Shown: positions 18,001-24,000 of the stretch, in pieces | How the letters are laid out: the number at the start of each line of letters is the position of its first letter | Position numbering within the stretch: position 1 is the first letter of the stretch | Assembly (NCBI GenBank): GCA_963815195.1 | Contig: CAWFGE010000018.1 | Span: forward strand, 1-64,000 | Direction of reading: 5' to 3' | Source: an uncultured Planctomycetaceae bacterium | GTDB lineage: Bacteria > Planctomycetota > Planctomycetia > Planctomycetales > Planctomycetaceae | DNA: 64,000 nt | Position numbers: made by a program

Positions 18001-21000
18001 GGTCTCGTTTAAAGAGCGAATACTTTTCTTCAGCTTACCTGCCGATTCGATTAAGAGACTCGCGTCATCCGTGGAAATCTGCCCCGTTTTCACAAGGACC
18101 TCGACACGATGGATGAACGCGTTCGTTTGTTTGTCGGCAGCATTTTCCCTCCCGCCAATAATGCTGGTCATTACGGCCCCCAACACTGACTTGAGAGAGA
18201 CGGCATCACCGTTCGTGAAACCACCTTGTGCGGCGAGAAGATTGACATCAGCCACGAGAACTCCAACCTGTTGTTCAGCCGAAAGGACGGTAAGCGTAAA
18301 CGTCTTGGCTGAGGAAGCGGCCCCCCCTTCATCAACTAGGATGACCTGTACGGTCGCCGTTCCGCTGGTGTCGGCCGCGATCTCGTAAGTCAAGGTGCCA
18401 CTGGCGGGATCAATGAATGGCTCCGCGGCAAACGCCAGATTTCCGGTTGTCCCAAGCACGGTGGTTTCGAAGGTGAGCGCCTGGCCTTGTTCATCGGTTG
18501 CGGTCGCGGGGCCGGGGGCGATGTTGGTCGCGAAGTTCGCGACGGTCTGCGGTCCCGCGTCTTCGGAGGAAGCCGGTGGATTGCCGGCAAGGGTGAACTC
18601 CGGGGGATCATTCACGGTGAGAACGGTAATTGTAAAGGTGTGAGTTGTCGATTCGGCCCCTTCTTCATCGCTCAGGATGACCGAAATGGTAGCCGTTCCG
18701 CTGGAGTCGGGCGTCGTGGAATAGGTCAACGTGCCCGACGGATCAATGAACGGAGCCGCGGCGAATGCGAGATTTCCGGTTGTCCCAAGCACGGTGGTTT
18801 CGAAGGTGAGCGTCTGGCCTTGTTCATCGGTTGCGGTTGCGGGGCCGGGGGCAATGTTGGTTGCGAAGTTCGCGACGGTCTGTGGTCCCGAGTCTTCTGT
18901 GGATACGGGTGGGTTGCCGGCAAGGGTGAATTCCGGGGGATCATTCACGGCGAGAACGGTAATTGTAAAGGTGCGGCAGTTGTCGATTCGGCACCTTCTT
19001 CGTCGCGCAGGATCACGGAAACGGTTGCCGTCCCGTTGGAGTTTGGCAACGTGGCATAGGTCAACGCGCCCGTGGACGGGTCAATGAACGGTTCCGCGGC
19101 GAACGCGAGATTTCCGGTTGTCCCAAGCACGGTGGTTACGAAGGTGAGCATCTGGCCTTGTTCATCGGTCGCGGTCGTGGGTCCGGGGGCGATGTTGGTT
19201 GCGAAGTTCGTCACGGTCTGCGGTCCCGAGTCCTCCATGGAATTCGGATCGCTTGCCAAGGTAAAGACAGGCGGATCGTTTACGGGGGTCACGTGGATAT
19301 TCACCGTCGCCGTGTCTCGTAACACGAAATCAACGAAGGTCTCCTTTCCGAAATCGATGTTGCCCTTAGGCAAGAGTCGTGCCCGGTCGAAGCTGAACGA
19401 CAACGGCTCCGTTTCGCCGGGGACCGTCACGATCTGCTGGAGCCTTTCATAATCCAATTCAAAGGAGATGATGTTCGTTCCATCGTCGTCGGTGTCGATC
19501 TCCAGCGAGACCACAACGACATTTTCCAGTATCCATTCCTCCAAAAGTCCGGAGGGCTCCAGTCGGCTGAGGGTCATCTGCGGAAGGATGGTTCCCGTGG
19601 CAACCGCATGGAACAGGCCGGGAGCGGATTTGCTCATCGGGGTGGTCAGGTGGAGACCACCCAGCTTTGGGTTCGACTGTCCGTTCGTGCCGATGATTGC
19701 ATTGCCCTCGATGAACCAGGAGCTCGCCTCGACGGCGATCTCACCGGAGGGCGTGACCAGGATCGTGGGTTCCTGTTCGCGGTCGAAGTCCTCTTCGCCG
19801 AAACCGGGGTCGGGGTCGATTGGCTCATTCTTTGTTTGGTCGTAACCGAACATCAAAACGTCCGCTTCGTCTTCACCGGTTTTGGGGGGAATCGTTACCT
19901 TCTGCTCGAGCGTTTTATAGTGTAATTCGAAGGAGATGAGTTGCGTGCCGTCGATTGCGGTGTCGACCTTCATTGAGACGATTTGCACTTCCATCAGTTG
20001 CCACTCCGTCAGCAGTCCCGAGGGCTCCCGCTGAAATAGAGTCATCTTTGACCCAAAAATTCCGGTGGCAACCGCGTAGAACAGGCCGGGTGAGGCTGCG
20101 CTTATCCGGGTACTCAAACGAAGATTCCCAAACTGCGGTTTCGAAGCACTATCGCCACTACTGCCGATCGTGGTGCTGTTTTGAAGGTCCCAGAAATTCC
20201 CCTCAACGGTGATCGCGCCCGAGTCGGCGACGAGCATCAAGGGAGTCTCGTCGGGGGGAAGATTCTTCACGCCAAAGCTGGGCTTGTCGCCAAACGTCTG
20301 CTCAATATTCCGGTCGTACCCGGTCGATATCGGATCGCCTGGGCCGGGCCGGGTCACGGTCTGCTCGATCGTTTCATAATCCAATTCAAAGGAGATGATA
20401 CTCGTACCGTCGATTTCGGTGTCGATATTCAGCGAGACCACAACGACATGTTCCAGCGTCCATTCCGTCAGTAGTCCAGACGGGTCCTGTTGACTGAGCG
20501 TCATCTGCGGGATGGGGGTTCCCGTGGCGAGAGCATAGAACAGGCCGGGCGAGGATTCCAGCATCCGGGTCGTCAGGTGGAAACGGCCAAACTGTGGGAA
20601 CGAGGGGTTGCCCCCGTCGATGTTTGTGTCCTTCTCGATGAACCAGGAGCTCTCCTCGATGGCGATCTCGCCGGAGGATGTGACCAGGATCGTGGAGACC
20701 TGTTCGTGGTCGAAGTCCTCTCCGCCGAAGCCGGCGTCGGAGCTCATTGGGGCATTCGTTGCTATGTTGTAATCGAACCTGAACTCCGTGCGAGCACCAA
20801 ACGGATCGAGACGCGTTACCTTCTGCGCAAGTCTTCCAAAGTCTCCAAAGTCCAATTCAAAGGAGACGAGTTGCGTGCCGTCGACTTCGGTTTCGACCTT
20901 CAGCGAGAGCACGAGGACATCATTCAGCGTCCACTCCGTCAGTCGTCCGAAGGATTCCTGCTGGTACAGCATCATATCCTGGCCAGAACTGGTGAGGATC

Positions 21001-24000
21001 TGGTAGAGCAGGCCGGGCGAGGTTTCACTCATCCGCGTGCTCAAGCGGAGCTTAAATTCCGGTTTCGAAGCGCCGTTGTCGCCGATGGAGCCGTTGTTTT
21101 GAATGTTCCAGGAGATCTCCTCGATGGCGATCTCGCCGGTGAGAGTGGCGAGAATCAAGGGATGTTCGCCGACTCCGTCTACGTTGCCAAGGGGGGGCTT
21201 TTCGGTGCCGGGCAAATTCTTCTGAATACTCCGGTCGTAACCGGTCGACAGGGAATTCCCGCCGCCCGGGGCGGTTACGGTCTGCAGGACCTTTTGATAT
21301 TCCAATTCAAAGGAGATGATGCTCGTGCCATCGTCTTCGGTTTCGAAATCCAGCGAGGTCACATAGACATTTTCCAGCAGCCATTCCGTCAGTTGTCCAG
21401 AGGGCTCCTGTTGACTGAGGGTCATCTGCGGAATGGGGGTTCCCGTGGCGAGAGCGTAGAACAGACCGGGCGAGGCTTTACTCATTCGGGTGGTCAGATG
21501 GAAACTGTCAAACTGTGGGGCAGGACGATCGACGCCGTTGGCGTCTCTCACAATGTCTCTCTCGACGGACCAGGAACTGTTCTCCACGGCGATCTCGCCG
21601 GAGGGGGTGACCAGGATCAATGGGACCTGTTCGTGGTCGAAGTCCTCTCCACCGAAGCCGGGATCATTGCCGATTGACTGATACTTTGTTTGGTCGTAAC
21701 CGAACGTCAAAACGTCCGCTTCGTCATCACTGGTTTTTCCGGGAATTGTCAGGGTATGCGTCAGCTTGTCATACGACAACTCAAGGGAGATCAGGGTCGT
21801 GCCGTCGTCTTCGCTGGCGAAATTCGCGGAGACCACCTGGACTTTCTCCAAATTCCATTCTGTCAGCCGTCCGGAGGGTTCCAGGTGTCGCAGGGTCATG
21901 TTCTCAATGAGTGAATCTTGGGCCGCCAGTGCGACCGCGGAGGACAAACCAGGGGCGGCTTCGCTCATTCGCGTGGTCAAATGGAGATTCTCCAACGTTG
22001 GTAGTGACACGTTCGGACCGGAGGGAGGGCTGAATGTGAGGCTGGTATGAGTGTTCCAGGAAAATCCGCTAATGGGGATCTCACCCGTCGGTGTCTGGAG
22101 AATCGTCGAGAACGCGGGATTGCGTTCCACGGAGTATGTGAACGAATCCGTCCCACTGAAATCGGCGTTGGGTGAGTAGCGGAACTCTCCAGGGGCGACT
22201 TCAACCAGTGTGCCCTGTCCGGGGTTCGTACGCGAAATCTCCGTAACGCCGACCTCAAGATCATCGTTGGCCAGTAGATCGTTAATCGAAAAGTTGACGC
22301 TTTGATCTTCGTTTGTTGTCAGTGAAACGTCCCGGGCATCGAACGTGGGAATCAGGGAGGAGAGCAAGGCACGATCTTCAAGGAATTCGATTGCCGTCGG
22401 AAACGATAGGTTGAGATTTCGCCTCTGATAACGTCGCGTTGTCCGGGCAAAATCGGCTTGGCCGCGGATTCGAGCGAAAAGAGCAGCGAGTGGATTCCTG
22501 CGCAGATTGGACATAACAAACCTCTTGGAAAATTGATTCACGGGTACGCCTCCGGGAAAAATAGGAACGAAGAGATCATTACCAGTCACCGCGTGGGAAT
22601 GAGTGACCGCCCCGCATCCTGCCGCTTTCACTCATGGCGATCGTGGAACCGTTCGGTGTCTGACCAAGCTCTCCCAAACGTAGTGCGACATTTCGCGGGA
22701 CGGCTGTCGAAGAAAATCAAAAAACTTTTGGAAATTCCGCAAATCCATTCATGACAATGCGTGGACCATTCCCCGACCGGGCAATTCACCGGATTCAGAA
22801 CCAACGCCTGTGGTTTAAGCTTCCGATTTCGGACGGGATGGGAGCGAATGGGGCTTCGATCAACAATCCTCCCTCAATCGTTTCATCACTTCGTCGGTAA
22901 GTATTGGATTCAACTGGCGAACGGCGGTATTCTGGTTGTATGTCAGACGTCACCACCATTCTCTATCGTATTGAAGAGGGCGATTCGGCCGCGGCGGATG
23001 AGTTGTTGCCGCTGGTCTACGAGGAATTGCGCCGACTGGCGGCCGTGCGAATCGCTCAAGAAAAGCCAGGGCAGACACTCCAGGGGACGGCCTTGGTTCA
23101 CGAGGCCTATCTGCGGCTCGTGGATGGCAAGCTGGAGGAGGGTTGGAACAGCCGCGGTCACTTTTTTGGGGCGGCTGCCGAAGCGATGCGGCGGATTCTG
23201 GTCGAATCGGCTCGGCGGAAGAAGCGGCTGAAACACGGCGGCGACCGGAAACGTCAGGCACTCGACGAAGTCGCTGCCCCCGAGTCCGACGACCGGTTGC
23301 TGGCCCTTGATGACGCCTTGACGCGTCTCACGGACCAAGACCCCTTGGCGGCTCAGGTGGCCAAGTTGCGGCATTTTTGCGGTTTGGGACACGAGGAGGT
23401 CGCGCAGACGTTGTCGATCACGGTCTATCAGGCCCGGCAAAAATGGAGCTTCGCCCGAGCCTGGCTGCGGACGGAAATTCGGGATACTTTGTAATTCCCC
23501 CGATTTTTTTCGACAGCGGGTTCGCCAAACGTCGCACTGTGCTAAGGAGAGGCGCACGGAGACAATTCGCCCCGGTTTTTGAAAAGAGCACGACATGTCG
23601 AATGACCCGAAGCGACTACAAGAGCTGTTCTTACGACTGCTGGAGGTTCCATCTGAGGATCGGTCGGACGCCTTGGAGCGGGAATGCGGGTCGGACGCGG
23701 AGCTTCGGCAACAAGTCGAGGCTCTGCTGAAAGCGCACGAGGAACCGGATAGCTATCTCGATCAACCCGGTGATGAGGTCGCGGCGACCATGGTCCCGCC
23801 TGCGGAAGAGCCGGATGCCGAGACATCATCAGGAGAATCAGGCCGTCGCCAGAATTGGGATTTGCCACCCACGCAGGAGTATGAATCGTCCCCGGAGTCG
23901 GAATTGGGAGAATTCATCGCGGGGCGTTACACGCTGAAAGAAAAAATCGGCGAAGGCGGAATGGGGGAGGTCTGGGTCGCGAAACAATCCGAGCCGCTCA

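Follow-up and report, generated by a model that had tools for sequence, protein, structure and literature searches.

Rings built from Hcp or from phage tube proteins consist, in the textbook view, of six (or 3 × 2) separate chains, and to our knowledge these proteins are known solely within injection machines. PDB 1Y12 is the structure of Pseudomonas aeruginosa Hcp1, the inner-tube protein of type VI secretion systems (T6SS; Hcp/TssD, PF05638), and Hcp1 is already in use as a fusion partner for hexamerisation (PDB 4KSR and 7O42, both among our structural matches). The VgrG/gp27 hubs of contractile machines are trimeric and spike-bearing, and their fused tube-like domains form a pseudo-hexamer. 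Two tube domains are likewise fused per chain in T5 pb6 and the P74-26 TTP, whose fused domains tile a six-position ring (PMC5717097, PMC10034513); these rings are trimeric and pseudo-hexameric and stack in the phage tail. Hcp-ET proteins place an Hcp domain at the N-terminus of a longer protein (PMC8262886); they have a single Hcp domain per chain, carry toxin domains and depend on T6SS. For RTX adhesins, a preprint describes an N-terminal retention module that acts as a periplasmic plug (bioRxiv 10.1101/2025.09.30.679566). Our literature search found no description of single-chain Hcp rings as an extracellular module.

Here we analysed a 64,000-nt window (contig CAWFGE010000018.1, positions 1 to 64,000) from the assembly of a soil planctomycete (94.64% complete), in which the open reading frame g05528 (18945..22514, minus strand; 1189 aa; ATG at 22514, TGA at 18945-18947) carries six Hcp-like units in one chain. 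We read its product as an exported, fibrillar adhesin-like protein with a closed six-Hcp ring outside T6SS, and assign this reading a probability of about 0.6.

Six Hcp-like units in a single chain

The predicted protein opens with an arginine-rich leader (residues 1-60; 22335..22514; this and all following features of g05528 lie on the minus strand) that resembles planctomycete extracellular leaders and contains the motif LEDRALL at residues 45-51. Pfam returned no match for residues 1-70 at E ≤ 10, and g05528 has no classical signal peptide. Among the 150 best family matches, 38 contain the leader motif (LExRxLL) by regular-expression search, and relative P0022 matches the Pfam leader family Planc_extracel (PF07595). 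A Big_9/cadherin-like Ig domain follows (residues 61-130; 22125..22334; Big_9 2e-10, Cadherin_5 1.4e-9), and after it come Hcp-like units 1 (residues 136-253; 21756..22109), 2 (291-414; 21273..21644), 3 (450-557; 20844..21167), 4 (600-721; 20352..20717), 5 (751-874; 19893..20264), and 6 (909-1029; 19428..19790). The called frame ends in a further cadherin-like/Big_9 repeat (residues 1036-1189; 18945..19409; Cadherin_4 1.6e-4, Big_9 0.046), whose final ~10 residues are out of frame. The array is thus flanked on both sides by tandem Ig-like extenders of the kind found in RTX adhesins; the NCBIfam tandem-95 repeat model scored 58.7 bits, under its cut-off of 90, and Pfam detected no HemolysinCabind or RTX repeats in g05528 or the ORF downstream of it.

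The Hcp identity of the units is supported by sequence and by predicted fold. Pfam T6SS_HCP (PF05638) matched g05528 in six stretches (E = 9.8e-47; 158.9 bits against a cut-off of 23.5), and five of the six units individually exceeded the cut-off. Five units match both PF05638 and the unit profile, while unit 3, recognized by the unit profile (120.8 bits), is the sole one without a PF05638 match in the genome-wide search (maximum E-value 0.01). The only other gene in the genome matched by PF05638 is g06621 (C21:258766-268176), with five units above the cut-off and one at 21.8 bits. The survey's finding of exactly six units in each of these two proteins was reproduced: our own profile placed the units of g05528 at residues 136-253, 291-411, 450-557, 600-718, 751-871 and 909-1027, in line with the survey's positions, and a 12-unit profile run over the genome found six units in g05528, six in g06621, and no others. 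The NCBIfam model of the tube protein TssD (TIGR03344) gave 30.3 bits for g05528 and did not reach its cut-off of 58.9. In comparisons of predicted models with Hcp structures, Foldseek assigned a probability of 1.00 (TMt 0.71 for 1y12_C and 0.76 for 4tv4_A), and VIA gave Z scores of 12.2 (3eaa_B) and 14.2 (8z7k_A) to Hcp-fold chains. The domain of T6SS Hcp/TssD is shared, and so would be its number of six per ring, whereas the T6SS protein is a single domain of ~160-170 aa on separate chains and g05528 holds six diverged units in one chain of 1189 aa, with a leader ahead of them and Ig-like domains on both sides, and its genome lacks T6SS genes.

At the DNA level, the six repeat copies are spaced at 450-483 nt, and a 927-nt super-repeat occurs three times. 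The units of g05528 are 42-70% alike among themselves; their likeness to foreign units does not exceed 35%.

A frame break interrupts the gene ~10 codons ahead of the called stop (18970..18980), where two extra bases are present relative to the matching site in the next repeat copy. In the other frame, a downstream ORF (17878..18975, minus strand) continues the same repeat with two more Big_9/tandem-95 repeats, followed by a ~130-aa alpha-helical C-terminal part. The 1189-aa gene model is probably cut short, and the true protein would measure ~1,530 aa. The break could instead be real and the gene a decaying pseudogene whose array has no present function here, a reading with which the apparent severing of g06621 from an upstream ORF and the split of a neighbouring kinase gene would agree. 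We consider this improbable: the 3.5 kb of repeats are free of other stops, and at least five Pkinase genes of the assembly are broken across two frames, which indicates indel errors of the assembly. Even with a real break, the leader, the first Ig domain and the entire ring would still be produced. The gene neighbourhood contains CRISPR-Cas genes, regulators, a kinase and recombinases, and has no phage context.

Six is the preferred unit number of a large family

A search of 1.84 billion proteins with the 12-unit profile gave 5224 matches at E ≤ 1e-3, 523 at E ≤ 1e-10, and 89 at E ≤ 1e-30. The earlier impression of a rare family consequently fails overall, and stands only for the sampled Planctomycetota species genomes, in which the family is apparently rare. 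Two pattern-limited scans of viral contigs found no six-unit relatives.

Units were counted in the best 150 matches: six unit slots are present in 99 of them, seven in a single protein, and more than seven in none. The exception, P0061, holds seven real units and overturns the previous statement that six is never exceeded. Of 26 relatives with four or five units, 15 are without sign of truncation. Identity between units of the same protein extends from 17% to 99.5% over the family, and even arrays of near-identical repeats end at six (P0035, 99.5%; P0040, 97%). Three origin modes were distinguished among 88 six-unit proteins, namely (A)6 with units at least 80% identical (6 proteins), (AB)3 (11 proteins), and (ABC)2 (4 proteins), and for 323 of 528 units the nearest unit belongs to the same protein. 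By sequence comparison, six was reached repeatedly, by 1 × 6, 2 × 3, and 3 × 2 block duplications.

Predicted models point to a closed ring

AlphaFold2 models of the arrays reached a mean pLDDT of 84.1 and a pTM of 0.80 for g05528 (908 aa), and 90.9 and 0.86 for g06621 (956 aa). The structural aligner reports the first and last aligned residue, and closure was read from these ranges and the aligned lengths rather than from coordinates. On the g05528 model, a range of 5..905 was covered by 8xan_B (238 aligned residues, rmsd 3.7), 7qg9_I (222, 3.6), and 8ed0_A (242, 4.0), whereas hub and VgrG chains covered consecutive units. The corresponding range on the g06621 model (~2-10..942-945) was covered by 8eon_E, 8v3w_H, 9vzk_1, 8kea_A, 6u5h_C, and 7zhj_b. 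In both models, solved chains with two tube domains aligned over ranges from unit 1 to unit 6 with an rmsd of 3.6-4.3 Å. Since units 1 and 6 are matched jointly by two-domain tube proteins, we interpret both models as closed rings. At the level of models, ring closure as proposed in the survey is thus supported by the pTM values, the alignments from first to last unit, and unit counts that peak at six, a number reached through 1 × 6, 2 × 3 and 3 × 2 duplications; in the actual protein, the six units would pack side by side like six Hcp subunits and give one covalently continuous pseudo-sixfold ring.

An array that stays open, as beads on a string or as an ascending helix, would merely lengthen the stalk in the manner of Ig-like extenders. 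The existence of four-, five- and seven-unit relatives fits such an arrangement, as does the fact that closure was read from alignment ranges. The number of plain extenders, however, would vary freely instead of settling at six even in near-identical repeats, pTM values of 0.80 and 0.86 are well above those for loose beads, and two-domain tube proteins bridge the two ends of the array. We therefore judge an open array to be unlikely.

The comparison with known fused tube proteins likewise rests on the models. Two-domain chains aligned over two units in both (rmsd 3.5-4.7 Å, Z 6.0-8.9), with Z scores of the two-domain matches that are middling (6.1-8.9). As in pb6 and the P74-26 TTP, tube domains fused in a chain would tile a six-position ring, and in each model these proteins match a pair of neighbouring units; they use three chains per ring and stack in a phage tail, whereas g05528 would provide all six positions in one chain. 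For VgrG/gp27 hubs the alignment also extends across two units (8eon_E, Z 8.6; 9mlp_A, Z 7.2; 1wru_A), but these hubs belong to contractile machines, and this genome has no Phage_GPD match.

Probable use outside type VI secretion

Searches for VipB, TssF, Phage_GPD and Phage_sheath_1 gave no matches in the 94.64% complete genome, and no VgrG was found, in agreement with the survey, which had reported the absence of sheath, baseplate and VgrG genes. VipB is also missing from all five alphaproteobacterial genomes searched that hold six-unit relatives. Together with partner domains of secreted or surface type, these absences support the claim that the arrays are used outside T6SS, and the ring would accordingly operate without a type VI machine.

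It is very improbable, in our estimation, that g05528 is instead a specialised ("evolved") Hcp that still uses a contractile machine, be it a T6SS or an extracellular injection system, whose genes were missed or left unassembled. The units are Hcp-like in sequence and fold, the assembly is 94.6% complete, 100 of the 401 Planctomycetota genomes sampled (G000 among them) contain single-domain Hcp genes, and Hcp proteins with C-terminal effector domains are known (PMC8262886). Long Ig-like stalks on either side of a single-chain ring would nevertheless make stacking in a sheath impossible, and the relatives show export features of type I, T9SS and planctomycete type. Hcp-ETs have one Hcp domain per chain and toxin domains, while the family described here has six units with Ig-like or RTX partners and, in our domain search of relatives, no recognised toxin domain.

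Export features and possible roles of the array

In relatives the array comes with stalks of Ig-like domains, with RTX/type I ends, with a T9SS tail, or with leaders of the planctomycete type. Among 32 proteins with an N-terminal array, 21 carry Ig-like or cadherin-type domains, 14 HemolysinCabind or Peptidase_M10_C, 13 a C-terminal RTX beta-roll/type I signal (HemolysinCabind), and one a Por_Secre_tail. The six-unit proteins with RTX motifs only (n = 19) have a median N-terminal flank of one residue, and in the RTX relatives the array begins at residue 1, the site of the retention plug of type I adhesins. In a Novosphingobium relative, no type I genes were found inside 10 kb. On our reading, the g05528 protein would be exported.

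Read together with the downstream ORF, g05528 would comprise the leader (LExRxLL), an Ig-like domain, six Hcp-fold units, about three Ig-like tandem-95 repeats, and a terminal helical part. As unit 1 would adjoin unit 6, both stalk segments would exit the ring at one spot. The ring would serve to anchor or to assemble a fibrillar surface protein. Tentatively, it may act as a rigid and bulky knot, complete in itself, that sits where the stalk is nearest to the cell and there anchors or halts the protein; it could also be a platform for stacking or docking of such proteins. Plugging by the array would be an analogy of position, since it has no sequence or fold kinship to the RTX adhesin retention module (e.g., LapA) and is ~10 times larger. 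The array of g06621 is located close to the C-terminus instead of at the base, so a single role tied to position does not suit both.

This distal placement of the g06621 ring fits a ring whose central hole takes up cargo, be it a small protein, a polymer or a filament. For T6SS, the binding of cargo in the lumen of Hcp is established (PMC8262886). We nonetheless find cargo holding rather doubtful as a substitute for anchoring or stopping: no conserved partner gene lies beside the array, the contexts in this genome and in Novosphingobium differ, and the wide span of within-protein unit identity does not suggest one conserved ligand.

Extending the anchoring or stopping role to the family, single-chain Hcp rings may be a widespread extracellular building block that was fused many times from the T6SS/phage tube domain (1 × 6, 2 × 3, 3 × 2) and that, where surface fibres of the type I, T9SS and planctomycete kinds have their base, acts as a stopper or as a hub for stacking, a generalization to which we give somewhat less than even odds. 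Should the models prove correct, the tube fold would have taken on a second role, as an extracellular module in surface proteins of bacteria that lack injection machines, and repeated gene duplication would have been steered by a six-position structural rule in a clean case. A natural single-chain Hcp ring with six differing positions would also be of use in protein engineering. For annotation, an "Hcp" label in a protein of 1,000-4,700 aa does not constitute evidence of T6SS. Both winding senses are possible in such rings, as the arrays of g05528 and g06621 respond oppositely to pb6-type and hub-type templates.

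Two six-unit Hcp arrays in a genome without T6SS machinery

The gene g05528 occupies positions 18945-22514 on the minus strand and encodes 1189 aa from an ATG; a GTG start in the same frame would reach 22631 and add 39 residues, which we judged unlikely. Pfam assigned T6SS_HCP (PF05638; E 9.8e-47) to six stretches of the protein and Big_9, Cadherin_5 and Cadherin_4 to residues 60-130, with no match in the leader. All NCBIfam matches fell below threshold: the tandem-95 repeat scored 58.7 bits against a cut-off of 90, and TssD reached 30.3 of the required 58.9 bits. A profile built from the twelve Hcp-like units of g05528 and a second gene, g06621 (C21:258766-268176), located the six units of g05528 exactly where the survey's finding had placed them. 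The claim that no other gene of the genome shares this architecture also held: the two genes carry its only PF05638 matches, and the unit profile detected six units in each and none elsewhere. T6SS machinery was likewise missing as claimed, with VipB, TssF, Phage_GPD and Phage_sheath_1 all without a match (genome 94.64% complete).

At the DNA level, g05528 contains six repeat copies spaced 450-483 nt apart and a 927-nt super-repeat in three copies. Units 2, 4 and 6 are 62-70% identical to each other and the odd units 42-51%, and the inter-unit linkers alternate. The array thus consists of a two-unit block repeated three times. Units of g05528 and g06621 share only 11-24% identity, so neither array is a recent copy of the other.

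Predicted structures are consistent with ring closure

AlphaFold2 prediction of the g05528 array (residues 128-1035) with a 61-row alignment gave a mean pLDDT of 84.1 and a pTM of 0.80, exceeding the 77.5 and 0.68 previously obtained with 14 rows; the g06621 array reached 90.9 and 0.86. In both models, each unit is predicted to be an Hcp fold. Hub and VgrG chains aligned to consecutive units of the g05528 model (5..281, 168..433, 324..586, 622..898), and the three two-domain tail-tube chains (8xan_B, 7qg9_I of T5 and 8ed0_A of P74-26) spanned 5..905 with 222-242 aligned residues (rmsd 3.6-4.0 Å), a number that matches units 1 and 6 in full. The roles were reversed in the g06621 model, where tail-tube chains aligned to units 5-6 and six hub-type chains extended over ~2-10..942-945. 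In an order-preserving alignment, units 1 and 6 can be paired only when they are spatial neighbours, so both models appear closed. Ring closure, which the survey had left open, is thus suggested by the range ends of these alignments, in which chains with two tube domains pair units 1 and 6 in both models. Overall, we consider a closed ring acting outside T6SS to have a probability of roughly three in four.

Judged from the same range ends, the swap between pb6-type and hub-type templates indicates that the two arrays may wind in opposite senses, which would fit the remark in PMC5717097 that the subdomains are connected differently in pb6 and in hubs. Joint prediction of the two halves of the g05528 array (residues 1-470 and 471-908 of the array segment), run without controls, scored 0.16 against a mark of 0.32.

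According to sections of PMC5717097 and PMC10034513, fused tube domains occur at two per chain in pb6, the P74-26 TTP and VgrG/gp27, whereas g05528 and g06621 carry six tube-like units per chain. Hcp proteins with C-terminal effectors (PMC8262886, in part) and, in Bacteroidales, rings made of different Hcp paralogues (parts of PMC13035841 and PMC13213661) are also known. Our literature search, which was aimed at tandem, fused or single-chain Hcp and at RTX retention modules and lay outside most subscription journals and the InterPro/Pfam architecture tables, found no paper describing natural Hcp arrays.

Six units predominate among the best-matching relatives

Searching 1.84 billion representatives with the twelve-unit profile yielded 5224 matches at E<=1e-3, most of them ordinary Hcp proteins; 523 passed <=1e-10 and 89 passed <=1e-30. 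We recounted units in the best 150 matches, retaining every row and correcting for double gaps, and found six unit slots in 99, five in 14, four in 12, three in 13, two in 11 and seven in one; ranking by summed score favors many units, so the share of six-unit proteins is inflated. By the same token, arrays longer than seven would have ranked first, and none were seen in the best 150. The statement that relatives never exceed six units had to be dropped because of this one protein, P0061 (1230 aa), in which a hydrophobic N-terminus precedes seven real units that alternate between long and short from the second onwards. Its array is best read, on sequence grounds, as one unit plus a long-short pair repeated three times, i.e., one unit + (AB)3.

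It had been asked whether relatives with four or five units are genuine, truncated or incompletely detected. When re-checked with a broader profile, 11 of 26 had an end cut off, began with a residue other than Met or showed a weak additional unit, and 15 displayed none of these. A rule by which the unit number divides six was not supported, as proteins with four or five units (26) were as common as those with two or three (24) among the best 150.

Pattern-limited scans detected no relative in metagenome contigs (queries: a g06621-type alignment and the g05528 array) or viral contigs (queries: the alignment A3 and the relative P0005). The clusters of ten relatives bear "type VI protein secretion system component Hcp" as their sole source name, and the ESM Atlas returned nothing but single-domain Hcp clusters (scores 0.80-0.84). 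PF05638 occurs in 100 of 401 Planctomycetota species genomes including the present one, outside of which its frames measure <=652 aa among the matches listed (30 others lie outside these). The six-unit architecture is widespread in metagenomes, yet turned up in this genome alone among the Planctomycetota genomes sampled.

Different duplication routes lead to six

Within-protein unit identity, measured in 88 proteins whose six units were all cleanly detected, ranged from 17% to 99.5%. Six of them follow an (A)6 pattern with >=80% mean identity (P0035 99.5, P0040 97.0, P0051 93.8), 11 an (AB)3 pattern (e.g., P0020, 97.5 vs 62.5; P0037, 80 vs 24) and four an (ABC)2 pattern (P0111, 100 vs 24; P0073, 88 vs 43), leaving 67 without a duplication pattern at the thresholds used. 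For 323 of the 528 units, the nearest unit lies in the same protein, which applies to all six units in 37 proteins. Unit positions mostly do not correspond between proteins, and the units of g05528 share <=35% identity with any foreign unit. Such arrays could be either many independent builds or homogenized by conversion. Under both origins, the unit number is kept at six through every route open to block duplication; at the sequence level, nothing argues more strongly for a closed structure with six positions.

Partner domains and hosts of the relatives

Thirty-two six-unit proteins combine an N-terminal array with a long C-terminal part. HemolysinCabind was found in 13 of these, and another one carries Peptidase_M10_C without it. 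Domains of the Ig-like, cadherin, He_PIG or MBG_2 kinds are present in 21, PPC with Por_Secre_tail in one, and a toxin domain in none. Among 37 further relatives, T6SS_HCP stands alone in 20; other partners are Calx-beta, PKD, SdrD_B, Big_13, Dockerin_1 and Beta_helix/NosD, with Planc_extracel in one. Across the 99 six-slot proteins, a regular expression detected the N-terminal motif LExRxLL in 28, and at least three GGxGxD motifs were present in 22. For the 19 bearing RTX motifs alone, the median array start is residue 1.

RTX-type six-unit genes occur in Novosphingobium aquiterrae, Novosphingobium sp. KCTC 2891, an alphaproteobacterial MAG, a Novosphingobium MAG and a Sulfitobacter MAG, and VipB was detected in none of these five genomes. 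The N. aquiterrae gene, at L010 9959-15079, lies between an autotransporter adhesin (L010 2-5302) and an exopolysaccharide locus (L010 17720-24206), and no type I genes are found up to 10 kb away. The adhesin carries He_PIG/Calx-beta repeats, and the locus comprises a BBP2_2 porin, a Wzz/GNVR kinase and GT4 transferases. Single-unit Hcp-like genes were additionally observed in Actinomycetes, Thermoleophilia, Solirubrobacter soli, Acidimicrobiales, Acidobacteriota and Gemmatimonadaceae (L015-L034, L036, L038), groups that are not known for T6SS.

Possible roles of the ring

Directly supported are six Hcp-fold units, the lack of a T6SS, partner domains of the kind seen in exported proteins, an upper limit of six units (P0061 aside) and closed-ring models. 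Hcp hexamers measure about 9 nm in diameter and enclose a hole of 4 nm, and an array chain would fold into one ring of this size. Its entry and exit would lie side by side, so that the ring could sit as a bead on an Ig-like stalk. In RTX relatives, the array sits in the position of the retention module, described in a preprint as the sole portion folding without calcium and as a plug of the type I duct on its periplasmic side (bioRxiv 10.1101/2025.09.30.679566); a ring of ~100 kDa would be an effective stopper. The ring of g05528 lies near the N-terminus, behind the leader and one Ig domain, and that of g06621 near the C-terminus, a position better suited to docking, stacking or a cargo role. 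We propose an anchor or stopper only tentatively and consider lumen binding somewhat less likely; the largest share of probability falls to stacking or a role of another kind.

Apparent frame breaks at both genes

From ~18970-18980, an ORF in another frame (17878-18948) carries on the tandem-95/Big_9 repeat of g05528, and the first repeat copy at the break is two bases longer than the next. The called stop is therefore probably an artefact or a recent break. Joined, the two frames would encode ~1,530 aa, opening with the leader and an Ig domain; the six Hcp units would follow, then about three Ig-like repeats and finally a helical stretch. The downstream ORF also has a FIMAH match below cut-off (21.4 vs 24.8). 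Parts of 18600-19400 are present as contigs in two soil-metagenome runs, neither covering 18951-19112, and no RNA data set is listed as containing this region.

Similarly, g06621 overlaps an upstream ORF of >=1273 aa in another frame (L009 12179-16000, minus) that ends where g06621 starts and encodes SdrD_B, P_proprotein and CarboxypepD_reg domains; g06621 may thus be part of a protein of >4,400 aa. The kinase adjoining g06621 is split, and at least four further Pkinase genes each extend over two frames (split domains at C10:437127-437868, C17:14879-15605, C23:468239-468989, C23:152827-153577 and C21:257283-258396), a pattern that points to numerous indel errors in this assembly. As frame breaks are this common, we lean towards an assembly indel error in g05528.

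Genomic neighborhood

Both six-Hcp genes adjoin a Ser/Thr kinase with TPR repeats, located at 23595-27023 (plus) beside g05528 and at about C21 256069-258646 (L009 69-2646, minus) beside g06621. The two kinases share only 28% identity and the genome contains 85 Pkinase matches; the pairing could be coincidental or functional. The 5716-16164 region holds a type I CRISPR-Cas gene set (Cas3 11276-13717, Cas6 13714-14376). After it come genes for an ECF-like sigma factor (14387-15211) and for a WYL/HTH regulator (15163-16164). An rve-type integrase (28437-29285) and a large serine recombinase (30646-32721) are encoded a few kb from g05528, and this region may be mobile.
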